This document shows, in pieces, positions 9,333-46,568 of a DNA stretch of 64,000 bases. A program made the translations under genes and the position numbers. The notes beneath the pieces were generated by a model that saw only the letters and a list, made by a program, of their open reading frames with translations, made no database searches and was not told the DNA's origin. Each line of letters begins with the position of its first letter. Position 1 is the stretch's first letter. Origin of the DNA: Prochloron sp. (GTDB taxonomy: Bacteria > Cyanobacteriota > Cyanobacteriia > Cyanobacteriales > Prochloraceae); the NCBI GenBank assembly GCA_965198675.1, contig OZ240666.1, forward strand, positions 4,644,776 to 4,708,775. The letters run 5' to 3'.

Positions 9333-9732
9333 CGCAGTTCCTCATATTCAAGTTTAGAGTGAGCAGCATAATGAAACGTCTCTCAATGTCAGCAGTTAGA
9401 AATTGTCCGTCCATAATGTCTAATCTCAATCAGTGACAGGGGCGCGCCCGATATGAAAGGGCGCGATGCCTTGCCCGTACTAGTCCTGCTCATGCCAACC
9501 GGGGCAGTCAGGCAGTTGTCGTTTGTCTTGGTGCGCTTTCCACCTTGAATCCCATTCAAGAAAATGCACCGCACCGCAATTTGGTGGGGGGCTCAGACCC
9601 AAAGAAGAACATTTAACTGGTAACTGCTGAACCTTCCCTTTCTAATATAGCCTTGCGTAGGGGCGTGCCCCTACACCCGCGCCATCGCGCTATATATGTT
9701 ATCTTAAGAACCAATGTTGTTTTCCCTGACTA

Positions 9733-11819: not shown

Positions 11820-12475
11820 ATGTCTAACTCTGTTTTAGTAATCGACACCAACAAACAGCCATGCAACCCGGTTAATCCGGGGATGGCCAGACGTTTGTTG
11901 AAGGAAGGGAAAGTTGCCGTATTTAGGCGCTATCCCTTCACCATTATTTTGAAAGAAGAGCGCAACAAAGAGCCCACCCCTTGCCAAGTCAAGATTGACC
12001 CCGGCTCCAAAACAACCGGTATCGTGCCCCTCGGTTTCTCAACCGGACTCGGCCCAAGGGGTGGTTGCCGCCCAGCCTTGTGCGCGAGTATCTGCTTGAA
12101 AAGTGGCATCGCACCTGTGCCTACTGTGGTGCTCAAAACACCCCGTTGGAAGTGGAGCACATTGTGCCGAAATCTACGGGGGGCAGCAATCGGGTGAGCA
12201 ACCTTGCCATAGCCTGTGTGCCGTGTAATCAGGCCAAGGGCAATCAAGCCATTGAAGACTTTCTCTCGGGCAAGCCGGATCTGCTCAAGCGGATTAAGGC
12301 CCAGACCAAGGCTCCCCTGAAGGATGCGGCGGCGGTCAACTCGACCCGGTGGGCATTGTTTGAGCAGTTGAAGGCAACGGGGTTGCCGGTGACGGTGGGC
12401 ACCATCCAGGGCATCAGCCACAAATATTGTTCTTTCGTTCATAAAAAGGATGGATATTCCTATGCATTCAGTTAG
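11820..12475 (+). pseudogene. iscB: internally deleted, frameshifted IscB
   Basis: It retains the PLMP-like N-terminus (VLVIDTNKQPCNPVNPGMARRLLKEGKVAVFRRYPFTI), RuvC-I (KIDPGSKTTG), FLNRTRPKGWLPPSL in a second frame, the HNH domain (CAYCG...EVEHIVPKS...NLAIACVPCNQAKG) and the DGYSY tail. It lacks RuvC-II/III. Confidence 0.8.
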
Positions 12476-13714: not shown

Positions 13715-14678
13715 GTTAGAAGTAAAAGCAGGTGAAAATGGGTTGCGTTTGGATCGGTGGCTATCTCAGCAACTGTCAGATTTATCCCCCTGTCAAGAGC
13801 ACGCTTCCCGCACCCACCTGCAAAAGCTCATTGCTCAGGGCTTAGTAAAACTCAATAATCAAGTCTGTAGGAGCAAAAAAACTCCACTCAAGATGGGGGA
13901 TCGGCTCCAAGTTACCATCCCCCCAACCCAACCCCTAAACCTGCAACCAGAACCTATCCCCCTGGATATTCTCTATGAAGACGATTCTCTCATCATTATT
14001 AATAAACCCTCTGGCTTAGTAGTTCATCCCGCTCCCGGTCACGAAACTGGCACCCTAGTGAATGCTCTATTATATCATTGCCGGGATTTAGGGGGTATTG
14101 GCGAGGTAGAACGCCCTGGTATCGTCCACCGACTAGATAAAGATACCACTGGAGCATTGGTAGTAGCCAAAACAGATTTCGCTCACCAACACCTACAAGC
14201 TCAAATTAAAGCCAAAACCGCAAGGCGAGAATATCTGGCTGTGGTTCACGGTGCTCCTTCTACTACTGAGGGTATCATTGATTTACCCATTGGGCGTCAC
14301 CCTGTTCATCGGAAGAAAATGGCTGTAGTACCCCTTCAAAAGGGGGGAAGAAACGCTCTCACTCACTGGCAAGTCTTAGAAAGACTGGGCAACTACACTT
14401 TAATCCAATACCAACTTTCTACCGGTCGCACCCATCAAATTAGGGTTCATAGTGCTCATATGGGACATCCTATTGTGGGGGATACCCTTTACAGTTCCGG
14501 TGGTTCCCTTGGGGTTAACTTATCCGGACAAAGTCTCCATGCACGAAGACTTTCTTTACAGCATCCCCTATCTGGAGAACCTATAGAGGCGATCGCTCCT
14601 CTACCTACCGACTTTACTAAGCTCCTTACATTATTACGTCAAAGAGTAGTGGGCATTGCCCACCTTGCCAGTCCGTAA
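13704..14678 (+). CDS. rluD: RluA-family 23S rRNA pseudouridine synthase
   Basis: S4-like N-terminus (LRLDRWL), catalytic HRLDKDTTG, and a C-terminal TGRTHQIRVH. Confidence 0.85.
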   Translation: MDIELEVKAGENGLRLDRWLSQQLSDLSPCQEHASRTHLQKLIAQGLVKLNNQVCRSKKTPLKMGDRLQVTIPPTQPLNLQPEPIPLDILYEDDSLIIINKPSGLVVHPAPGHETGTLVNALLYHCRDLGGIGEVERPGIVHRLDKDTTGALVVAKTDFAHQHLQAQIKAKTARREYLAVVHGAPSTTEGIIDLPIGRHPVHRKKMAVVPLQKGGRNALTHWQVLERLGNYTLIQYQLSTGRTHQIRVHSAHMGHPIVGDTLYSSGGSLGVNLSGQSLHARRLSLQHPLSGEPIEAIAPLPTDFTKLLTLLRQRVVGIAHLASP

Positions 14679-14779
14679 CATTGCCTACTAAAAGCTTTCG
14701 TAATACTAGTGGTGGGATTGGCAAAGATAAATTTTACCAATTTTCACCTATACCCCCGTGTTGGTGGGCAATGCCCACC

Positions 14780-16741
14780 CTACAAAGAGGTATTGTTTTG
14801 TAATTCATCTTCTAATTCTTTGATTAACTTTTCCATTTCTTCAGCTTCATTTTCCATTCCTGCCACTTTCTTATCCATTGCTAAGGATCTGAATTGCTGT
14901 AGTGCTTCCTCTGCCCATTCCCGTGCTCCCTCTAAATTACCCCGCCCTTTCTCTAAACGAGCAAAAGAGCGCTTATAGCGAGCTTCCCGTCGTAGATTTT
15001 TATTCTTTGCAGCTACCGTAATTCCCTCAGTTAATAGGTTGTACGCTTCCTCTAAGTCTCCCTGGATAATAGCAAGATCCGCCAACCAATTTTTGATTGA
15101 GTTAATTACTCGATACCATTTAATTCTTTTAGCACTTGCCATGATTTGGTGAAAGATTTCTTTTGACTTCTTATAGTCCTCTTCCCGAAAACATATTTCC
15201 GCCCGATGGTAAGATACAGGAATAGAATAATGAATGTGTTCTCTTTCTTCTAGTTGAGCTTCTTCCACTAACTTTAATTCTAGTTCCAGCTGTTCCCGTG
15301 CTTTGTCATATTGTTCCTTACGAATATATAATTTGGCCCTAGTTTCAGCCAACTTAGACCTTATCTGTAATTTTACATGGTTTTCCCAACCCTCAGCTTC
15401 AACCAATATTTTTTCCGCTGCTGTGAGATTTTCCTCGGACTTGAAACGAATGAGGGTCCAGCTTTGGTAAATAGTGAACTCCACGAAAGTGGACCATTCT
15501 CCACGCTTTTCCGATTCCTGTATTACCCACTCCAGCCCTTCAAGACGATCGTGCCAATAGCCATATAAACTGATGTAGTGGTATAAGAGTTGCCATAAAT
15601 CTCTAACCTTTTCATAGCTTCCTTTTCTATGACACCACCTGAGTACCTCCCGCAAGTTGTCCTCTTCTTCCTCTAGTTTGTAGTAATTGGTCCAATTGTA
15701 TAAATCTGGTCCACCATATTTCTTAGCAAACCCGATATACCAGTTCACCCAACGCTCCCGTGCTTCTTCCTGAAAATCAGGGTTACCAGCCAGCTCATCT
15801 AAGGCGTACTCCCGGGTGAGAGGGAGCATGGTATAGCGTTCTTTATTTTGACTGATAAGGGAAAGTTGCAGTAGTTGGGCTAAACCCTGACGCACTTTAG
15901 AGCCATTTTGCTGCAAATCAGCTACTTCAGCTATAGCTTCTTTCACAGGAGGCTTTGGGAAAATTGCCAAAGACATGAGCAGTAGGTGTGAGGATGTTCC
16001 CCTGAGAAGTTTCACGGAACTTTCAAAGCAATATCTTCCTACATCTTCAGGAAGGGGTACTTTCTGATCCAATAAGGTGTCTAGTGGGTAGCGACTCGCC
16101 AACTGACCCACAGCATAGATTAAAGCAACGGGAACGCCGCCAAAACGCTCATAAATCTGCTGGCATTCCTTCTCAGTCACTCGGACTCCTTTTTCCTGAG
16201 CTTGTTGCTGAATCAACTGGATACTATCCTCTTCCGGTAAAGAATCCAAATAAATTGAACTATATCCTGCTACTGTCTCCCGAGTGGTAATCACCCCTTT
16301 AGCACAACGGGGTAGTTCGTTCAGAAAACGGAGAACCTCCTCTTGATTCTCTATGGTCTCGAAATTATCCACAATCAGGAGAGTGTTTTGTTCCTCTAGC
16401 TTCTTTTTTACCCGTTCCTCTTGCTCCTCTGGCTTGGTTTGGATAATGGATTGGTCTTCAAAGGTGTTGGCAATTTCCCGGAAAATCTCCTCCAGGGTAA
16501 TCCCTACCGGCTTTACGGGGACAATTCCCTGGGGCAAAAGTTGATTTTTCTTAGCCTCCGTGAAGATAATAGCGTCAAAATAGGGGGTTTCGGAGGTTGA
16601 GACACCATGGTTAAACTCCCAACAGCGGTATGCAGCTTCCACCACCAATGCTGTTTTCCCCACTCCCCCAATACCACCAACGTTAATATAAGGAGCAGAA
16701 CTAAATCTCAGATAAGCGTCATAAAGCGATAAATTAAGCTA
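14780..16741 (-). pseudogene. STAND NTPase (NB-ARC-like plus TPR), copy A, 5' end removed at the IS607 boundary
   Basis: P-loop GGIGGVGKT, Walker B LLIVDNFE and C-terminal TPR-like repeats. The frame is open upstream only to a TAG at about 16741. There is no start codon, and the N-terminal domain seen in copy B is missing. Confidence 0.75.
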
Positions 16742-16778
16742 TAATGGTCGGGAAGCGTTTGAGGTTGTCAAAATAGGA

Positions 16779-17393
16779 AAATATGTCAAGCCAAGAGAGG
16801 CAGCGGAAAAACTCGGGGTTCATGTCAGAACTCTTGTGCGATGGCACAATGAAGGAAGAATCAAAGTCATCAAAACCCCATCTGGACAACGAAGATATGA
16901 CGTTGAATCCTACACTGTTGGAATTGAAAAAGAGTGAACCACAGTTATTTATGCCAGGGTTAGTTCCAGAAATCAACGGCCTGACCTTCAAAGACAAATT
17001 GCCGCCATCAGTAACTTGTACCCCACCGCAGAAATCATCAGCGAAATCGGGGGAGGATTTAACTTCAAAAGAAAAAAACTTACAGCCTTATTGGGGAGAG
17101 TCATGCAAGGAGATGTCGCAAGAATTATTATCGCACACAAAGACAGACTGGCAAGATTCGGGTTCGACTTCTATCAATGGTTCTGTGAGCAATTTGACTG
17201 TAAAATCTTGGTTCTCAACGAGAAAAACTTGTCTCCAGAAGCAGAAATGGTTGAAGACATCCTCGCCATCCTCCACTGCTTCAGTAGCAGACTCTATGGA
17301 CTCAGAAAGTATAAAACTAAGGTCGAGGAAGATCAAGATTTATCCAAGCTCAGAGCTAAAAAAGGAGTGGAAGAAATGGGTAGCAGCTTGTAG
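16779..17393 (+). pseudogene. tnpA: IS607-type serine recombinase transposase with an in-frame TGA
   Basis: The MerR-like HTH (KYVKPREAAEKLGVHVRTLVRWHNEGRIKVIKTPSGQRRYD) and the catalytic core (VIYARVSSRNQ...IAHKDRLARFGF) share one frame, separated by a TGA at 16935..16937. No canonical start codon is present. Confidence 0.75.
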
Positions 17394-18444
17394 ATATAGT
17401 TTTAATAAGGCCATTGCTTATCAAAAAGAAAATGGCGGGCTGGGGAAACAAAAATTACGCAATATTATCATGCAATCAGATTTACCGGAATGGGTAAAAG
17501 AAACTCCTTGCCATATAAGACAGAATGCCATTTTTGATGCACATCAAGCTTACTCTAAAAGTCAAAATTGTAAATTTAGAAGTTGTCAGGCTCCCAGACA
17601 AACAATCAAATTTAACAATAGCAACTACACAAAAGGAAAATGGTACTCAAGATTAACCAAAGGAAAAGATTTTCAAAGTAGCGAACCCATACCCACCAGC
17701 AGTGCTTATGCTACTCAAATAATAAAAACTAAGTGTGGGGATTGGTTTGCGGTTTTTTTAGAAGAAGTCAAACCAAGTGCTAATAATGTAGATGGAATAA
17801 TCGCAATAGATCCAGGAGTGAGAACATTTCTGACAGGATTTGATGGCCAATCATTTATGGAAATTGGAGTCGGGGATATAAGAAAAATAACCAGGTTATG
17901 CCAGCATTTAGACCAACTAATGAGTCTCAGAGGCTTATCTAAATCGAAAAGGCAAAGACAAGAGATGAGAAAAGCGGCAGCAAGAAGTCGAAGAAGAATC
18001 AGAAACTTAATCGATGAATGTCATCGTCAGGCAGCTTCTTGGTTGAGCAAAAATTATCAAATAATCTTCTTGCCGACATTTGAGACAAGCCAGATGACAA
18101 AAAAGAAAAAACGGAAAATAAGAAGCAAAACTGCAAGACAAATGTTAAGTTGGTCACATTATAGGTTTAAACAGGTCGATCAAAATCGAGCTGAGTTAAG
18201 TGGCTGTCAGGTAATTGATGTGACAGAAGAATTTACCAGCAAAACTTGTACCAAATGTGGCCGTATTCACACAAAACTGGGTGGCAATAAAGTGTTTAAA
18301 TGTCCAGAATGTGGACATGAAATCAATCGGGATTTTAACGGTGCTGTATTGCTTTTGCGATCAGCTTTGAGGGATACCTCCGTCACTTTTTCAAGTGATG
18401 CTATTGTCGTGCAAGGCGATATTATATCGCTTTGTACCGCATAA
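17296..18444 (+). CDS. tnpB: TnpB (RuvC-like RNA-guided nuclease, IS607-associated type)
   Basis: 383 aa from the ATG at 17296: IAIDPGVRT (RuvC-I), zinc finger CTKCG...CPECG, and NRDFNGA (RuvC-III). The upstream part of the 553-aa track ORF is out-of-frame tnpA sequence. Confidence 0.85.
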   Translation: MDSESIKLRSRKIKIYPSSELKKEWKKWVAACRYSFNKAIAYQKENGGLGKQKLRNIIMQSDLPEWVKETPCHIRQNAIFDAHQAYSKSQNCKFRSCQAPRQTIKFNNSNYTKGKWYSRLTKGKDFQSSEPIPTSSAYATQIIKTKCGDWFAVFLEEVKPSANNVDGIIAIDPGVRTFLTGFDGQSFMEIGVGDIRKITRLCQHLDQLMSLRGLSKSKRQRQEMRKAAARSRRRIRNLIDECHRQAASWLSKNYQIIFLPTFETSQMTKKKKRKIRSKTARQMLSWSHYRFKQVDQNRAELSGCQVIDVTEEFTSKTCTKCGRIHTKLGGNKVFKCPECGHEINRDFNGAVLLLRSALRDTSVTFSSDAIVVQGDIISLCTA

Positions 18445-18890
18445 ATGTATCAGCAATTTATTCATTGTGTGAAATTCTTAATTTTCTCCTTGTGTCTTGT
18501 GGGAGTTAGTTCTGCACTAATATTCACCATCGGCTTGATTCTATTCGTGATAGAATGGCCGAAGAAATAACAAGGATATAACACTCTCCGTGTCAGCTAA
18601 AGAGGCGCGTCCCAAACAAGGCTGACACTTCCCCTCCTCAAACAGTGACCAGGACGCCAAGGGCGGGACGCCAAGGGCGGTTGCTTGCGCAAAGCTTCGC
18701 AATACCAGTTACCAGTTACCAGTCCTGCTCATGCCAACCGGGGCAGTCAGGCAGTTACCAGTCCTGCTCAGGTAAACCGGGGCAGTCAGGCAGGCGTCTG
18801 GTGCGGGGTTGGACCCACCCCCCACTGCTAAAGGGTAAATTCTCTATTAACAATAATTCACATTTTAATTGTAGCACACACTACTGTATA

Positions 18891-18925
18891 TGATATGATA
18901 TGATATGATATGATATGATATGATA
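18891..18925. repeat. pentanucleotide microsatellite (TGATA)x7
   Basis: Seven perfect units lie about 110 bp upstream of the ATG at 19035. The paralogous site 22771..22785 has only two perfect units plus one imperfect unit. Confidence 0.9.
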
Positions 18926-19034
18926 GTGGATAGCAAAATTGGAAACAATCGATACAGAAATGGCTATACCAGAAGTTGAACCAAAGGCGATCGCTGACTT
19001 ACCTAGTAATAAAAAAGAAGAGAAGGAGAAAACC

Positions 19035-19316
19035 ATGACGGAATCTCACTTTGAAACATTGAGAGAATTTACTACAGCCCTAGACAAGAAAGTTGAAGTA
19101 GGTTTTGAGAAAGTGAATACCGGTTTTGAGAAAGTGAATACCGGTTTTACAGAGGTTAAAGGAGAAATAAAACTCATTCAAAAAGAAATTGTTACAGAAA
19201 AAGAGAATTTTGAAAAAAGATTTGGATATCTAGGAAAGTTAATTTATGCTGTGATGGCAATGATAGTACCTATATTATTACTGATAGTAACTATATTAAT
19301 TAAACTTTTTAATTAG
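19035..19316 (+). CDS. small tail-anchored coiled-coil protein, copy A
   Basis: The ATG at 19035 follows GAAGGAGAA. MTESHFETLREFTTALDKKVEVGFEKVNTGFEKVNTGF... ends in one C-terminal TM helix (LIYAVMAMIVPILLLIVTILI). Confidence 0.6.
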   Translation: MTESHFETLREFTTALDKKVEVGFEKVNTGFEKVNTGFTEVKGEIKLIQKEIVTEKENFEKRFGYLGKLIYAVMAMIVPILLLIVTILIKLFN

Positions 19317-19516
19317 GTTGCTGTTTTTAAACAACTAAACGTTAACTATAATAACCCAGAAGTTGCACCTAAGCAGCACATCCTAATAAAATACAAGTCT
19401 ACCCCTGATTTATTCGGTAAGAAAAAAGAATACAAAAAAGATACAGCAAGGGCTACCAGGAACGATAAGGTGGGCAATGCCCACCTACAGAATTATGAGA
19501 ATGAAGGAGATAAATA

Positions 19517-20677
19517 CTACCTCTGTGAATTTATACTTGCTGCTGAAGTACGCTTTTGTAATTCCTCCATTAAATATTCCATTTCTTCAGCTTCATTTTC
19601 ATAGCGTCCTTCTCTACGACACCACCTTAGTACCTCCCGTAAGTTTTCCTCTTCTTCCTCTAGTTGGTAGTAATTACTCCAATTGTCCAAATCTGACCCA
19701 CTATATTGCTGGGCCAACCTTAGATACCAGTTCACCCAACGCTTCCGTGCTCCTTCCTCGAAATCAGGGTTACCAGTAAGTTCATCTAAGACGTACTCCC
19801 GGGTGAGAGGGAGCATAGAATAGCGTTTATTGTTTTGACTGATAAGGGAAAATTGCAGTAGTTGAGCTAAACCTTTACCCACGGAGGAGTCATTTTGCTG
19901 TAAACCAGCTACTTCAGCTATAGCTTCTTTCACAGGAGGATTCGGGAAAATTGCCAAAGACATGAGGAGTCGGTGTGAGAGTGTTCCCCTGAGGGGTTCC
20001 ACCGAACTTGCAAAGCAATATCTCCCTAAATCTTCAGGAAAGGGTACTTTCTCATCCAATAAGACGTCTAGTGGGTAGCGACTCGCCAACTGACCCACCC
20101 CATAGATTAAAGCACCGGGAACGCCGCCAAAACGCCTATAAATCTGCTGGCATTCCTTCTCAGTCAGTGGGACTCCTTTTTCCCCAGCTTGTTGCTGAAT
20201 CAACTGGATACTATCCTCTTCAGATAAAGAATCCAAATAAATTGAACTATATCCTGCCGCTGTTTCCCGAGTGGTAATCACCCCTTTAGCACGACGGGGT
20301 AGTTCGTTCAGAAAACGGAGAACCTCTTCTTGATTCTGAATCCTCTCGAAACTATCCACAATCAGGAGGGTATTTTGTTCCCCCAGCTTCTTTTTTACCA
20401 GTTCCTCTTGCTTCTCCGGCTTGGTTTGGATAATGGATTGGTCTTTCAAGGTGTTAGCAATGTCCCGGAAAATCTCCTTCAGGGTAATCCCTACCTGTTT
20501 TCCGGGGAGGATTCCCTGGGGCAAAAGTTGATTTTTCTTAGCCTCCGTGAAGATAATAGCATCAAAATCGGGAGTTTCCTCAGTTTTCTCACCATGGTTG
20601 AACTCCCAACAGCGGTATGCAGCTTCCACCACCAATGCTGTTTTACCCACTCCCCCCATGCCACCAATGTTAATATA
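19517..20677 (-). pseudogene. STAND NTPase copy B, 3' portion (TPR region deleted)
   Basis: GGMGGVGKTALVVEAAYRCWEFNHG... is highly similar to copy A. It jumps from ...REGRYE directly to NEAEEMEYLMEEL, so the roughly 250-aa TPR region of copy A is absent. Confidence 0.8.
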
Positions 20678-21579
20678 GAACCCATTTGAGATCTTTTTAA
20701 GTAGTGGCTAGCCTTTTAAGCATCAGTCGGACAAAACATAGACTAATCTTGGTATTAGCCTGCTCAAGAGTCCTTTCAAAGTTTTTGACCAAACTCTTGC
20801 ATCTTTCCATCCACGAATTAGTTCTTTCAATCACCCACCGCGCTTTTACTGGCACAAAACCGGTTTTTCCTTCCTTTTTCTTTTGAGCTTTTGATGGTTT
20901 ACGGGAGACCTTAAATCTAATCTTAGTCATAATCGCCGGATAAATTTTATGTAATTCCTGGGTCAGTTTTTCTGGGTGATATCCATGGTCAAGCAAAATG
21001 GTAATCTTGGGGATGTTGACTGGTTTAGACTTGAAATAATCTATGTTTTTCGATAACATTTCAATCAAACCCACATCGTCAGATACCGATGCTTTGGTGC
21101 AATGACTAAAAAAAGGAAAGCCCAAAGTATCTACTGCTAGATGTCTTTTAATACCATTGGTAGACTTGTAAAAACAAAACCCTTTCGACTTTACACTGGC
21201 GTTACAGGTATTTTTTACCGCTTGGGAGTCAATGATGATTAGGGTTGTCCATTGCCCTTTTTTTTTAACTTGCTGACGGACTCTACTATGCAAGATATCT
21301 CTGATTGCTTCGATTACTCCAAGCGATCGCCACTGTTTGTAGTACCAAAATACTGTGGAATAGGGGGGCAAGTCTTTGGGTAAGTCACACCAATTACAAC
21401 CATTCTTTAATTGGTACAAGATACCATCTAAAATCTGCCTTTTACTCCATTTTGGTGGTCTTGTCTGTTTCTTTTTGGGCAACAGAGGTTCTATTATTTT
21501 CCACTCCCCGTCTGTCAAACTACTTGAGTACGGCATTTTTTCCCTATTTTACTCCACAACAGAGATCTCAAATGGGTTC
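20678..21579 (-). mobile_element. IS5-family insertion sequence
   Basis: Perfect 17-bp terminal inverted repeats GAACCCATTTGAGATCT (20678..20694 and 21563..21579) are flanked by a 4-bp TATA duplication (20674..20677 and 21580..21583). Confidence 0.85.
20697..21536 (-). CDS. IS5-family DDE transposase
   Basis: 279 aa; MPYSSSLTDGEWKIIEPLLP...ILDGILYQLKNGCNWCDLPKDLPPYSTVFWYYKQW...IDSQAVKN...DHGYH...VIERTNSW, typical of the family. Confidence 0.9.
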   Translation of the reverse strand: MPYSSSLTDGEWKIIEPLLPKKKQTRPPKWSKRQILDGILYQLKNGCNWCDLPKDLPPYSTVFWYYKQWRSLGVIEAIRDILHSRVRQQVKKKGQWTTLIIIDSQAVKNTCNASVKSKGFCFYKSTNGIKRHLAVDTLGFPFFSHCTKASVSDDVGLIEMLSKNIDYFKSKPVNIPKITILLDHGYHPEKLTQELHKIYPAIMTKIRFKVSRKPSKAQKKKEGKTGFVPVKARWVIERTNSWMERCKSLVKNFERTLEQANTKISLCFVRLMLKRLATT

Positions 21580-22180
21580 TATAGGGAGCACGGTAGTCTA
21601 GGTCCATATATTTTAGTAGTTGTTTTAGTTCTTCTTCCCTACCGATAAAGTCATTGGTTTGACTGGGTAAGTTTTGCAGGGGAAGGGAACGGAGGTAGTT
21701 GCGGTTATATTCATATACTTGGTAGGTGGAGGATTCTTTCCCAGCTTTGCGTCGTTTCCACTCCTCATCGAAATATCTCAGATTGGTCTTTTTATCCTTT
21801 GACTGTAGCTTAAGGGTAAAGTCCCAGCTCTGAGAACGCCTGGAGTTCGGGCGGTTATCTGTCAAAATACCGACAAAATTCTCCAGACGCTTGATTGCTT
21901 CTCGAATGTGCTCTTTAGTTAACTTTCCAGGTTGTGAGTCTTTGGCAGTAAGTTCTTCCAGAATCCTCAGTTTCGTGTGAACTACCAGCTGCTTATACCC
22001 TTTCCAAGTATAGACTATGTCCAGTTGCTCGCCGCCGGAAATGTCATCGTTCACATAATCCAGCAACGCTGCTAATAACCGCCTCGTCCGCGCTTGAATT
22101 GTATACCCGTAGGAAATTCGCCCCATAGCTTTACTCTTTATTTTAGGAAAAAAGTTTGGTGCTCCCAAAACTATCCCCAA
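21580..22180 (-). pseudogene. STAND NTPase copy B, 5' portion (N-terminal domain of unknown function)
   Basis: ...FIGREEELKQLLKYMDLDYRAPY joins in frame to INIGGMGGVGKT once the IS and one TATA copy are removed. Confidence 0.75.
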
Positions 22181-22899
22181 CCCTAAATCTGTTTATCTCT
22201 AAAGTACTCATTCTAAGTTTACCACACTTCCAGCGCTTTGACAAACCTGTTTGCTTTCGGTGACACCCAGAAATTTATCTTGGTGTTGTTCAATGAGATA
22301 TGAGGTATGATGAGTAAAGAGCAAGTTATCCATTCTGAGGTTAGCCCAGGACTTATCTTCCCCATCGGCTTGATTCTATTTATTAGAAAATTTCCTAAGA
22401 GAGGAAGACGATCAAACACTCTCCGTGTCAGCTAAAGAGGCGCGTCCCAAACAAGGCTGACACTTCCCCTCCTCAAACAGTGACCAGGACGCCAAGGGCG
22501 GGACGCCAAGGGCGGTTGCTTGCGCAAAGCTTCGCAATACCAGTTACCAGTTACCAGTCCTGCTCATGCCAACCGGGGCAGTCAGGCAGTTACCAGTCCT
22601 GCTCAGGCAAACCGGGGCAGTCAGGCAGGCGTCTGGTGCGGGGTTGGACCCACCCCCCGAGCCAAGCTCCCAGGAGGGGGGTTGGGGGGTGGGTTGCTGC
22701 ATAACTGCTAAAGGGTAAATTCTCTATTAACAATAATTCACATTTTAATTGTAGCACACACTACTGTATATGCTATGATATGATAGTGGATAGTAAAATA
22801 GGAAACAATCGATACAGAAATGGCTATACCAGAAGTTGCGCCAAAGGCGAATCTCCTCCTGACTTACCCGGTAATAAAAAAGAAGAGAAGGAGAAAACT

Positions 22900-23193
22900 A
22901 TGACAGACTCTAATTTTGAAACATTGAGAGAATTTACTACAGCCCTAGACAAGAACGTTGAAGTAGGTTTTGAAAAAGTTAATACCGGTTTTGCGGAGGT
23001 AAAAGGACAGATCCAACTCATTGACCAAAAAATTGAGCTGAAGATAGAAAGTATTGATTCAAAAGTAGATAGTTTGAGAGAGAATTCTGGAAAAAGATTT
23101 GGATATCTAGAAAAGTTAATTTATGCTATGATGGCCATGATAATACCTAGGTTTTTACTAACAGTAACTATTTTAATTAAACTATTCAATTAG
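22900..23193 (+). CDS. small tail-anchored coiled-coil protein, copy B
   Basis: MTDSNFETLREFTTALDKNVEVGFEKVNTGFAEVKGQ... plus a C-terminal TM helix; paralog of 19035..19316. Confidence 0.6.
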   Translation: MTDSNFETLREFTTALDKNVEVGFEKVNTGFAEVKGQIQLIDQKIELKIESIDSKVDSLRENSGKRFGYLEKLIYAMMAMIIPRFLLTVTILIKLFN

Positions 23194-23231
23194 GAGCTGT
23201 TTTTTGACAACTAAATGATTGCAAAGAGCTA

Positions 23232-23271
23232 TAAAAAAAAACCGGGTTTACCTTTTCGATGAAACCCGGTT
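23232..23271 (-). terminator. rho-independent terminator downstream of cpcG
   Basis: On the minus strand, the stem AACCGGGTTT/AAACCCGGTT is followed by a T9 run. Confidence 0.7.
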
Positions 23272-23294
23272 GATACAAGGAGTCAAACTTCTCG

Positions 23295-24065
23295 TTAAAC
23301 TTCTACTGGTTGTCCAGTCTTGCGATAAGGTACAGAGTCCATACTCACATTCATAGCTGAAACCCTGGGTACTGGATTGATCGCCGGACTGAGACTCCGT
23401 GCCATATCCAAATACAGAGCGGGATCGCCAGTTTTCGGCTGCTTGTCTTGGGGAATGTAGCGACGTACCGTAGTCTGCCAAATGATTTGGGGGAAACCCA
23501 AAACAGCGCGGTAATATCCGTCATAACGAGGAGATTTCACATTAAAGGGAATTTCACCCAGATCCCGACCGGGTAAGGACCGCCGTCGCTGATAGGGAAC
23601 GGTGTCGTAGCCAAAATTCTCCATGTACTCCTCACTGTTGAGGAGGTCGTCGATAAAAGCTTCATAGCCCTTAGAACCAATGACAACTCCCCAGGCGAGT
23701 TTTTCCCGCTCGTCGTAAATATCGCGCCCTAACACCCGCTGTACGGATTGCTCCACAAAGCGATAGTTGCTGTTAAGATTATAGAAGTTGCGCTTGTAGG
23801 TGTCGGAAAGCAAGAGTCCTCGAATAAAGTCCCGGACGGTTATTTGACCATAGCGAAGTTGGGATTCTAAAAAAGGCTCCCGATCGGACTTGAAGGCATG
23901 GAAGAAAATCTGACGATATGCAGCCTCAATCAGATTATCTATATCCCCTGAGTCCAGCAAGTTTTCTGCCGAGTAGATTACAGCCTGGTCGTCTCCGGCA
24001 ACTTCATAGCCGGATATCCGCTCGTTCTGGGTTTTCAAAGGATAGCTCAATAGAGGAATAGCCAA
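23295..24065 (-). CDS. cpcG: phycobilisome rod-core linker CpcG
   Basis: 256 aa; [22 protein letters not shown]...AAYRQIF...[19 protein letters not shown]...[18 protein letters not shown], a CpcG-type linker. Confidence 0.85.
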
Positions 24066-32372: not shown

Positions 32373-32948
32373 TTAAAATTTATTCGTTAAGTTAGGTAAA
32401 AAGAACTTGATAACACCGACAAAAAAGGCACTTGCCAAAGCAACTGTGATAGTACGATTGAGAAACTCTTGATTACTTATACGCTTGTCCAAACCACTAA
32501 CTTCTTTCTCCAAAGCCTTAACATCACCACTAAGTTTAGTAACATTTTCCGATAGCTTATCTACTTTGTTATCCAACTTATCTATCTTCTGATTAACCTC
32601 CTCTCTCAACTCATTTATTTTGCGATCCACATTCTGGTTCAACTCATTTATTTTGCGATCCACACTCTCGTTTAATTCATCTATCTTGCGATCCAGCTGA
32701 TCTATTTTGCGATCGACACTCTGGTTCAACTCATTTATTTTGCGATCGACACTCTGGTTCAACTCATTTATTTTGCGATCGACACTCTGGTTCAACTCAT
32801 TTATTTTGCGATCGACATTCTGGTTCAACTCATTTATTTTGCGATCCACACTCTCGTTTGCCAGATCTATCTTGCTATCCAGCTTATCTATTTTCCGATC
32901 CAGCTTGTCGAGGATTTCCTTGAGTGAGACTTCAACTGCTACCGTCAT
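32373..32948 (-). CDS. tail-anchored coiled-coil protein with 11-aa tandem repeats
   Basis: VDRKINELNQ(N/S) is repeated about 6 times (33-bp DNA repeats, about 32600..32860). There is one C-terminal TM helix. Confidence 0.6.
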   Translation of the reverse strand: MTVAVEVSLKEILDKLDRKIDKLDSKIDLANESVDRKINELNQNVDRKINELNQSVDRKINELNQSVDRKINELNQSVDRKIDQLDRKIDELNESVDRKINELNQNVDRKINELREEVNQKIDKLDNKVDKLSENVTKLSGDVKALEKEVSGLDKRISNQEFLNRTITVALASAFFVGVIKFFLPNLTNKF

Positions 32949-45452: not shown

Positions 45453-46568
45453 TTAGAAATAGGTGCGATCTCGCTTCTTTAAATACATCTTGCCAAGTTC
45501 TGCTAAAGGCTTTAATCTATCAATATATGCTACCAAAGTAGCAACTCGTTCTCTTTGACTTAGTTCCTCTTGCAGCTCTACAATTAGCTCTGCTTGTTTT
45601 TGGATTTGACATTGCAACAACTGGCAATTTTGAGTCTTTTCCTCCAGGAGAGATTGCTGTGCGGTGAGTTGCTTTTGTAAATTATCTACCAGCTCTGCTT
45701 GTTCTTGAATTTGACGTTGCAACGATTCGCAATTTTGAGTCTTTTCCTCCAGGAGAGATTGCTGTGCGGTGAGCTGCTTTTGTAAGTTATCTATCAGCTC
45801 TGCTTGCTCTTGAGTTTGACGTTGCAACGATTCGCAATTTTGAGTCCTTTCCTCCAGGAGAGATTGCTGTGCGGTGAGTTGCTTTTGTAAATTATCTACC
45901 AGCTCTGCTTGTTCTTGAGTTTGACGTTGCAACGATTCGCAATTTTGAGTCCTTTCCCCCAGGAGAGATTGCTGTGCGGTGAGTTGCTTTTGTAAATTAT
46001 CTACCAGCTCTGCTTGTTCTTGAGTTTGACGTTGCAACGATTCGCAATTTTGAGTCCTTTCCTCCAGGAGAGATTTCTGTGCGATAAGCTGCTTTTGTAA
46101 GTTATCTAAGAGCTGGGTTTGCTCTTCAGCTTGCTGTTGCAGAGACTGAGAACTTTCTGCTTGAAGACTTGCAAGAGATGTTTGTTCGGCGAGGTGCTTT
46201 TCTAACTCAGTAATGCGTTTTCTCTGTGTTTCAATTTGCTCTATTGTAGAATCATTCTTTTCCTTGATTTCTTTATCCTCAGCTTCTGGTGTACCAGTTA
46301 CAATAGCAATCTTAACTTGTGTTGGGGATTCGTTGGTACCTTCTGTATCAGTTTCAATAGCAACAGTTTTCTCGGCTTCATTGCTGGCGATCGCCATTGA
46401 ACCCAAAACGAAGCGCTCGATTAATTCAGATTTAGATAATTGAGCTTTCTCAGCGATTCGATTGAGCAAATCAAATGCCTTCGACGTTAGGGAAATGCCT
46501 ACCTTTGATTTACTTTCCCCAGAATCTGAGGGTCTACGCCTTTTTCTTGCCATGGCATCTTTCTCCAA
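45453..46568 (-). CDS. ribbon-helix-helix plus long repetitive coiled-coil protein
   Basis: N-terminal CopG-like SKVGISLTSKAFDLLNRIAEKAQLSKSELIERFV, followed by about five 35-aa (105-bp) tandem repeats LQKQLTAQQSLLEERTQNCESLQRQTQEQAELVDN. Confidence 0.6.
   Translation of the reverse strand: MEKDAMARKRRRPSDSGESKSKVGISLTSKAFDLLNRIAEKAQLSKSELIERFVLGSMAIASNEAEKTVAIETDTEGTNESPTQVKIAIVTGTPEAEDKEIKEKNDSTIEQIETQRKRITELEKHLAEQTSLASLQAESSQSLQQQAEEQTQLLDNLQKQLIAQKSLLEERTQNCESLQRQTQEQAELVDNLQKQLTAQQSLLGERTQNCESLQRQTQEQAELVDNLQKQLTAQQSLLEERTQNCESLQRQTQEQAELIDNLQKQLTAQQSLLEEKTQNCESLQRQIQEQAELVDNLQKQLTAQQSLLEEKTQNCQLLQCQIQKQAELIVELQEELSQRERVATLVAYIDRLKPLAELGKMYLKKRDRTYF

Follow-up and report, generated by a model that had tools for sequence, protein, structure and literature searches.

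Effector-associated domains (EADs) are small, non-enzymatic adaptors that conflict systems carry on their core NTPase (Kaur et al. 2020, PMC7159879). A second copy of the EAD is fused to an effector encoded next to the NTPase or elsewhere in the genome, and the copies are proposed to couple homotypically, as Death domains do; among the alpha+beta types, said to recruit effectors, is EAD4 (PMC7159879). Here, we analyzed a related locus at positions 14780–23193 of a 64,000-nucleotide stretch of a Prochloron sp. genome (GCA_965198675.1, contig OZ240666.1, positions 4,644,776–4,708,775 of the forward strand), hereafter “the window”. The locus holds two units with 81–93% DNA identity, each made of a minus-strand NB-ARC NTPase gene of the signal transduction ATPases with numerous domains (STAND) class and a plus-strand gene for a small tail-anchored coiled-coil protein. 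We consider it likely that the locus preserves the remains of a STAND sensor of a known type (EAD4–NB-ARC–TPR, the last being tetratricopeptide repeats), decayed clade-wide, in a sponge-associated cyanobacterial symbiont of the Paraprochloron clade, and that the small gene is independent of it.

With the EAD-coupled STAND NTPases (Kaur, Burroughs, Iyer, and Aravind 2020, eLife), the window lineage shares an N-terminal EAD4, a central NB-ARC and C-terminal TPRs, along with variable N-terminal outputs on a conserved core, occurrence in cyanobacteria, and other conflict genes near intact relatives. It differs from them in that both window copies are pseudogenes and that the host, unlike free-living filamentous forms, is apparently a symbiont of a sponge. 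The Avs1–5 and bNACHT systems modeled in PADLOC follow the same general logic, in which a STAND ATPase carries a repeat sensor at its C-terminus and an output domain at its N-terminus; however, the window core is of the NB-ARC and not the NACHT or Avs type, and none of five locus proteins (the NTPases, the EAD4 part, and the small proteins) matched a PADLOC v2 model at E ≤ 0.01. We know of no phage-defense phenotype for the NTPase clade of the window. The locus is laid out as follows:

14780–16696, minus strand: remnant of NTPase copy A, with NB-ARC and the full TPR sensor region (Pfam; in-frame translation from 16696).
16695–18515, plus strand: IS607-family element, with Resolvase and Cas12f1-like_TNB/HTH_OrfB_IS605 matches and terminal inverted repeats.
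18516–19034, no strand: unit A intergenic region, with copies of a dispersed GC-rich repeat followed by the small-gene promoter and 5′ untranslated region (5′UTR).
19035–19316, plus strand: small gene A, 93 aa, coiled coil and C-terminal transmembrane helix.
19517–20677, minus strand: C-terminal part of NTPase copy B, starting at the P-loop and stopping where NB-ARC ends, the TPR region being deleted.
20678–21579, minus strand: IS5-family element, 902 bp, with inverted repeats, a transposase, and a TATA target duplication.
21580–22126, minus strand: N-terminal part of NTPase copy B, with EAD4 (residues ~8–132) and a linker ending in DLDYRAPY.
22127–22899, no strand: unit B divergent intergenic region, with the NTPase 5′ region, GC-rich repeats (22573, 22612), and the small-gene promoter and 5′UTR.
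22900–23193, plus strand: small gene B, 97 aa, a further member of the family of small gene A.

A reading made earlier from the sequence alone (“the sequence-only reading”) had proposed a tandem duplication of an NTPase and small-gene module, and this was borne out. In blastn between the two halves, 15609–16690 of unit A aligned to 19596–20677 of unit B (89.2% over 1082 nt), 18516–18823 to 22351–22658 (93.5%), and 18824–19339 to 22704–23215 (81.4%), i.e., a similarity far beyond chance, and a repeat search of the window concurred. The intergenic regions look “repeat-rich”, as had been noted, because a dispersed GC-rich repeat lies in them: its sequence, containing CCGGGGCAGTCAGGCAG, occurs in seven exact copies in the window (0.01 expected), at 9499, 18738, 18777, 22573, 22612, 43526, and 43579. 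The repeats are thus real, but the copies at 9499, 43526, and 43579 identify a dispersed genomic element without specificity for the module, probably a small genomic repeat or an element resembling a miniature inverted-repeat transposable element. No Rfam match was found in window positions 14000–24000 at E ≤ 0.1.

The domain 21580–22180, which had seemed to match nothing recognizable, corresponds to Pfam PF19959 (EAD4), with 120 bits (cutoff 27) and E=1.1e-34 over residues 26–143 of the N-terminal open reading frame (ORF) of copy B. An AlphaFold2 model of this part (mean predicted local distance difference test score 73) is well ordered at residues 8–132 with an H-EE-H-H-EE-H topology, in agreement with the alpha+beta fold expected of EAD4. 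The model had no significant neighbor in the PDB (Foldseek best E=0.18, with winged-helix domains on top). The EAD is fused to the terminus of the core NTPase in copy B and is missing from copy A. Profile searches likewise upheld the NB-ARC assignment (PF00931) for both copies: ORF A (14780–16663, minus strand, 627 aa) reached 23.5 bits, exactly at the cutoff, together with TPR_12 (35.7 bits, cutoff 30.1) and TPR_MalT (35.1), while ORF B (19517–20659, minus strand, 380 aa) matched NB-ARC only, at 25.6 bits. The translations contain Walker A (GGIGGVGKT/GGMGGVGKT), Walker B (LLIVDNFE/LLIVDSFE), and ITTRE motifs, which, with the C-terminal repeat sensor of copy A, are those of NB-ARC (AP-ATPase) STAND proteins.

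Homologues of NTPase A numbered 514 at E ≤ 1e-10, mostly cyanobacterial and ~50% identical over NB-ARC–TPR, and carry PF00931 and PF13191. On this same core the N-terminus varies, being EAD4, Trypsin_2 (a trypsin-like peptidase), TIR, or helix-turn-helix (HTH); in some homologues it is a ~140-aa region labeled a LuxR-type regulator by one source, with no Pfam match in the one examined. Two intact EAD4 homologues (P0102 and P0086) adjoin Cmr2, NACHT, caspase-NB-ARC, and TCAD9 genes. The EAD4 N-terminus and the swapped N-termini of the cyanobacterial relatives strengthen the previous suggestion of a conflict or defense NTPase. By its domain make-up, the locus NTPase is classed as a member of the EAD-coupled NB-ARC–TPR STAND class, outside the experimentally characterized Avs/bNACHT families. 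In an intact ancestor, judging from established STAND biology and the EAD principle of Kaur et al. 2020, the TPR array would bind a trigger, the NB-ARC module would exchange nucleotide and oligomerize, and the clustered EAD4 domains would recruit, like with like, an EAD4-bearing effector.

The same core architecture could also belong to a signal-sensing transcription regulator of the GutR/MalT/AfsR type, with the window copies as dead regulators. AP-ATPase regulators (AfsR, GutR, and MalT-like) share the NB-ARC and TPR_MalT-like architecture and many close homologues have an HTH; one source names the closest of them (Nostocales, ~773 aa, ~50% identity) “LuxR family glucitol operon transcriptional activator”, an N-terminal GerE/LuxR HTH was confirmed at two loci (L044 and L045), PADLOC recognized no known defense family, and the nearest solved relative, and the only one that a sequence search found, is AfsR, with a marginal similarity (E=2.6e-4). 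Yet the N-terminus in the window lineage is an EAD4 adaptor rather than a DNA-binding domain, the core is also fused to a trypsin-like peptidase and to TIR, the neighbors of intact EAD4 versions include CRISPR, NACHT, and caspase genes, and conflict systems are described as keeping one sensor while exchanging the output domain at its N-terminus (PMC7159879), all of which makes a regulator very unlikely.

Neither window copy can make a working sensor or NTPase today. Copy A, ~50% identical to intact 770-aa cyanobacterial homologues, lacks both the EAD4 domain and a promoter. It is broken near the P-loop by an IS607-family element, as previously proposed, whose ends we placed by its terminal inverted repeats (16 nt, 16695–16710/18500–18515, 14/16 complementary) and by the loss of homology. 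The native sequence restarts at APYINVGGIGGVGKT after the element, so that the junction lies 6 codons before the P-loop glycines and not ~17 codons before GGIGGVGKT as first thought; homology ~20 nt further upstream with indels, which would yield the figure of 17 codons, was rejected in favor of the inverted-repeat boundary. Upstream of the P-loop, copy A has no in-frame canonical start codon, and the first start (GTG, 16663) lies inside GVGKT, which destroys Walker A.

The element has the organization of its family, i.e., a serine-recombinase tnpA with a MerR-type HTH followed by tnpB. Unlike in a typical IS607-family member, the tnpA gene (16773–17393) has decayed, with ATA at the expected start-codon position and an in-frame TGA at 16935; an ORF at 17016–17393 corresponds to the serine recombinase (Resolvase, 31.8 bits) and the HTH is readable as VKPREAAEKLGVHVRTLVRWHNEGRIK. 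The tnpB gene spans ~17296–18444 within an ORF at 16783–18444 (Cas12f1-like_TNB, 65 bits, and HTH_OrfB_IS605). Since both tnpA lesions are also present in a sister strain (locus L002, 97–99% identical), the element of copy A is old and probably immobile. No further copy was found elsewhere in the window or in two metagenome scans. Also unlike a regular member of the family, the element is accompanied by a loss of host DNA: ~760 bp of B-type sequence (the EAD4 coding region and the 5′ region) are absent from copy A although the element retains both ends. A simple insertion does not account for this loss, which we infer to stem either from a deletion next to the element or from recombination between two of its copies. 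In the sister strain, an additional IS607-family element (resolvase and TnpB; L002 1354–3478, at window ~12395) sits just downstream of an RRXRR gene and is unrelated to that of copy A at the DNA level.

Copy B is interrupted, again as proposed, by an IS5-family element (20678–21579) that has duplicated 4 bp of its target (TATA) and is bounded by perfect 17-bp inverted repeats; it encodes a 279-aa DDE transposase of the IS4/IS5 type (20697–21536; DUF4096, 89.7 bits, and DDE_Tnp_1, 47.6), and all these are features of the IS5 family. The empty site is preserved cleanly in the sister strain, which reads AATGTTAATATAGGGAGC where the window reads TTAATATA, the element, and then TATAGGGAGC. The insertion separates DLDYRAPY from INIGGMGGVGKT, i.e., 3 codons before the glycines of GGMGGVGKT rather than the 6 estimated before. 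The loss of the TPR region by a deletion between GAAAA microrepeats was also confirmed: 759 bp (253 codons) were removed in frame, with GAAAA microhomology and a junction reading TATGAAAA followed by TGAAGCT.

The order of these events could be examined from related genomes. By genome scan, the closest one is Candidatus Paraprochloron terpiosi LD05, whose flanking genes are 90–95% identical to those of the window; this symbiont of the sponge Terpios hoshinota has a host-restricted lifestyle and many mobile elements (PMC9298193). The sister strain shares the IS607 lesion of copy A and the TPR deletion of copy B, but its copy B is an uninterrupted 567-aa EAD4–NB-ARC ORF with an empty IS5 site, which marks the IS5 insertion as a recent event confined to the window strain. 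A third paralogous unit (C; 81% DNA identity) lies ~730 kb away in the sister strain (L001): its EAD4–NB-ARC–TPR gene has an in-frame stop (RC*EF) 12 codons past the P-loop and a C-terminal frameshift, with one small gene divergently upstream and two more downstream. At the syntenic site of P. terpiosi (L054), a single NTPase gene has a frameshifted EAD4, has lost most of NB-ARC, and contains stops in the TPR region, and is accompanied by two tandem small genes. In a sponge-metagenome relative (L003), the stretch from rluD to the phycobilisome-linker gene contains three small genes in tandem but lacks an NTPase. Near paralogue C, a group II intron-type reverse transcriptase gene (L001 15952–17541, minus strand; RVT_N, RVT_1, GIIM) fits the ~50 reverse transcriptase genes reported for the P. 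terpiosi genome (PMC9298193).

This comparison shows that the locus started with one NTPase gene, flanked by rluD on one side and by an array of small tail-anchored genes on the other, and that a ~3.9-kb segment (the NTPase and one small gene with its promoter) was then duplicated in tandem. Copy A lost its EAD4 and promoter, where the IS607-family element now sits, and copy B its TPR sensor by microhomology deletion, both losses predating the split from the sister strain; the IS5-family element entered copy B later, in the window strain only. The N-terminal domain should thus be annotated as EAD4, the NTPase genes as pseudogenes, and the apparent two-gene module as not conserved outside the lineage. 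The locus also represents a compact and datable case of a host-restricted cyanobacterial symbiont shedding an NLR-like immune sensor, whose steps (duplication, domain loss, insertion sequence (IS) hits, and point lesions) are traceable across four related genomes.

In the breakage of both copies, the sequence-only reading had seen a hint of selection against NTPase activity. This suggestion was not supported: copies A (without EAD4 and promoter) and B (without TPR) had been disabled before the two strains diverged, the IS5 hit is late, strain-specific, and located in a copy that evolves without purifying selection (8 nonsynonymous vs. 1 synonymous codon change in copy B between the two strains), and paralogue C and the P. 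terpiosi orthologue became pseudogenes by different lesions. All of this is explained by relaxed selection in a host-restricted symbiont, and since the same gene family is being lost throughout the clade, the simplest cause is relaxed selection in host-restricted life combined with IS activity. Selection against activity is not needed as an explanation but may have contributed. The surviving fragments might alternatively retain some function, with the free-standing EAD4 fragment of copy B or C acting as a decoy or dominant-negative adaptor, or the NB-ARC–TPR part of copy A expressed from an outward IS607 promoter. An EAD4-only ORF (~200–224 aa) survives the break in B as well as in C, and copy A keeps its 627-aa open frame free of further lesions; against this, the first start in copy A destroys its Walker A, the substitutions in copy B are nearly all nonsynonymous, and the EAD4 of P. 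terpiosi is itself frameshifted. We therefore regard residual function as extremely unlikely.

The small genes proved to be a family of their own. Counted from the ATG preceded by AAGGAG (7 nt upstream in A), they encode 93 and 97 aa, in line with the ~95-aa tail-anchored coiled-coil protein previously predicted for each unit. Proteins of the family begin with MT(D/E)SxFE (MTESHFETL in A), continue with a variable number of VGFxxV-type repeats (GFEKVNT heptads in A) predicted to form a coiled coil, and in A and B end in a hydrophobic transmembrane helix, predicted to anchor the protein by its tail. Each copy has its own conserved promoter and 5′UTR, including an 82-nt core at 22704–22785 that is 99% identical to 18824–18905. 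In the promoter region of small gene A, an (ATATG)n microsatellite (18885–18925) is ~20 nt longer than in unit B and all relatives, which could alter promoter spacing. Upstream of the AAGGAG-preceded ATG (window 22809–22899 compared with 18959–19034), most copies contain an in-frame extension reading MAIPEVEPKA...DLPGNKKEEKEKT; because this extension is out of frame in unit B, the conserved DNA is more likely 5′UTR than coding, with an N-terminally extended isoform possible in some copies.

Database searches placed this family only loosely. An exhaustive profile search of 1.84 billion representative proteins returned only 16 weak hits at E<0.001, a few of which are true relatives of similar size; a word-indexed homologue search, of low sensitivity, found two close relatives only; and Pfam and NCBIfam gave generic coiled-coil noise only. 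A match to “ssr2422 thylakoid membrane protein” (5/14 members, best E=1.4e-4, sub-threshold) was rejected as no better than SMC/Rad50 noise, and a literature search on it found nothing. Among PHROGs, the family had sub-threshold to moderate matches to unnamed phage families and to the “hemolysin” phrog_937 (7/14 members, best E=1.8e-10), the latter accompanied by many generic coiled-coil family matches. Phage XhlA-type “hemolysins” (PF10779, phrog_937) have the same ~90–115 aa, N-terminal coiled coil, and single C-terminal transmembrane helix. However, the three window-lineage copies examined did not match PF10779, which scored E=0.26 for one relative (P0127) and was not among the 25 most-matched families; the PHROG matches may come from coiled-coil composition; and the small genes are found without a lysis cassette or prophage context, in chromosomal tandem arrays near phycobilisome genes. 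The XhlA-like resemblance is thus a lead only. The small gene encodes a member of a multi-copy family of XhlA-like tail-anchored coiled-coil proteins that is restricted to the lineage and evolves fast (the ratio of nonsynonymous to synonymous substitution rates, dN/dS, is 0.35–0.67, with an open frame kept in every copy seen). Arrays of two to three copies with variable internal repeat number occur at L003 8001–9302, L054 3692–4519, and L001 11789–12806, and this uncharacterized family is a lead perhaps worth more than the original claim of a module.

The pairing of small gene and NTPase had been described as conserved, which was not supported outside this lineage. We searched the six-frame ORFs of all loci fetched by then with a hidden Markov model (HMM) of the small family. 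Among the 69 NTPase loci from the genome scan, only that of P. terpiosi contained the small gene, and none of the 68 loci from other organisms had it within 5 kb. The remaining hits were in loci obtained by protein look-up, namely those of the sister strain (L001, L002), of NTPase-free relatives (L003–L005), and L006–L009; in the last four, small-gene relatives from other metagenomes form arrays that adjoin Tubulin_2 and ZorA-like membrane coiled-coil genes with no STAND NTPase nearby. No comparable small-gene call was made beside the intact EAD4 homologues P0102 and P0086, and a generic scan for a divergent small tail-anchored ORF upstream of NTPase homologues returned 10 of 55 loci, which on inspection were mostly spurious ORFs or NfeD-like, beta-rich proteins without a tail anchor. 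The distributions of small gene and NTPase are independent, and the pairing here, which arose because a segmental duplication carried both, is probably lineage-specific and incidental.

Several observations nevertheless weigh against a decayed sensor with an unrelated neighbor. The dN/dS between NTPase paralogues (0.48–0.69, compared to 0.04–0.16 for five neighboring housekeeping genes at similar dS) mixes time before and after inactivation; with the substitution counts, these figures fit a long-drifting NTPase and do not demonstrate counter-selection. The lesions of A, B, and C cluster at the P-loop: in homologous coordinates, ~6 bp separate the IS607 junction from the IS5 target site, and the nonsense codon of C follows 12 codons downstream. 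As the gene has 17 TATA sites, we estimated the IS5 coincidence at ~6%, which is unusual without being compelling. Units A, B, and C all keep the small gene divergently upstream of the NTPase, as a functional pair would, and the phrog_937 resemblance makes a membrane-effector role conceivable. Finally, where EAD-coupled systems have a second EAD4 protein, an EAD4 HMM run on six-frame ORFs of the window and the fetched loci found only the NTPases themselves, and a word-indexed search with EAD4 alone, of low sensitivity, gave two close relatives, both NTPase fragments; the effector-recruitment step of the putative ancestor is thus inferred only.

These clustered lesions and the shared divergent arrangement are also what one would look for if NTPase and small XhlA-like protein formed a functional two-gene defense module, with the P-loop hits disarming a toxic or auto-active NTPase. 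The TPR-less copy B could in principle be deregulated and is the one with the IS5-family element, the small family weakly matches phage hemolysin families, and the L006–L009 arrays lie beside Tubulin_2 and ZorA-like genes. However, such a module is unlikely: the small gene is absent from the 68 NTPase-homologue loci of other organisms and stands in three copies without an NTPase at the syntenic L003 site, the small protein has no EAD4 and thus offers nothing for the NTPase adaptor to bind, the sister strain tolerates an uninterrupted TPR-less copy B, copy B is not under purifying selection, and the P. terpiosi copy decayed by many small lesions rather than a single decisive hit. In a more specific and distinctly unlikely version, the XhlA-like proteins of the Paraprochloron clade would be membrane effectors or partners of the EAD4–NB-ARC–TPR sensor in an undescribed two-gene abortive-infection module; if true, the three independent P-loop lesions would represent repeated selection for disarming an auto-active sensor during adaptation to life inside a sponge.

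A different small gene may form a conserved two-gene unit with the intact homologues. In several other cyanobacteria, divergently upstream of the NB-ARC–TPR gene, we found a gene for a 73–83-aa NfeD-C-like (PF01957) OB-type protein, with a gap of ~90–580 bp to the NTPase at the four loci for which the gene start was worked out. All copies are on the minus strand of their locus:

L010 1595–1846, minus strand: NfeD-like gene.
L067 4454–4705, minus strand: NfeD-like gene.
L080/L081 5469–5708, minus strand: NfeD-like gene.
L084 2–85, minus strand: NfeD-like gene.
L044 4280–4498, minus strand: NfeD-like gene.
L045 4283–4501, minus strand: NfeD-like gene.
L061 3874–4089, minus strand: NfeD-like gene.

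The linkage is independent of the NTPase N-terminus, which is EAD4, GerE HTH, or an unassigned domain, and the NfeD-like gene is absent from the window lineage. This linkage, too, is a lead perhaps worth more than the original claim.

Elsewhere in the window, positions 11820–12475 hold two overlapping ORFs of 125 and 136 aa, the latter with an HNH-like motif recognized by eye, which may be one frameshifted gene. Self-BLAST also revealed internal tandem repeats at 32559–32900 and 45583–46141, with periods of ~33 nt and ~105 nt, which fall in or near ORFs at 32373–32948 and 45453–46568, both on the minus strand.

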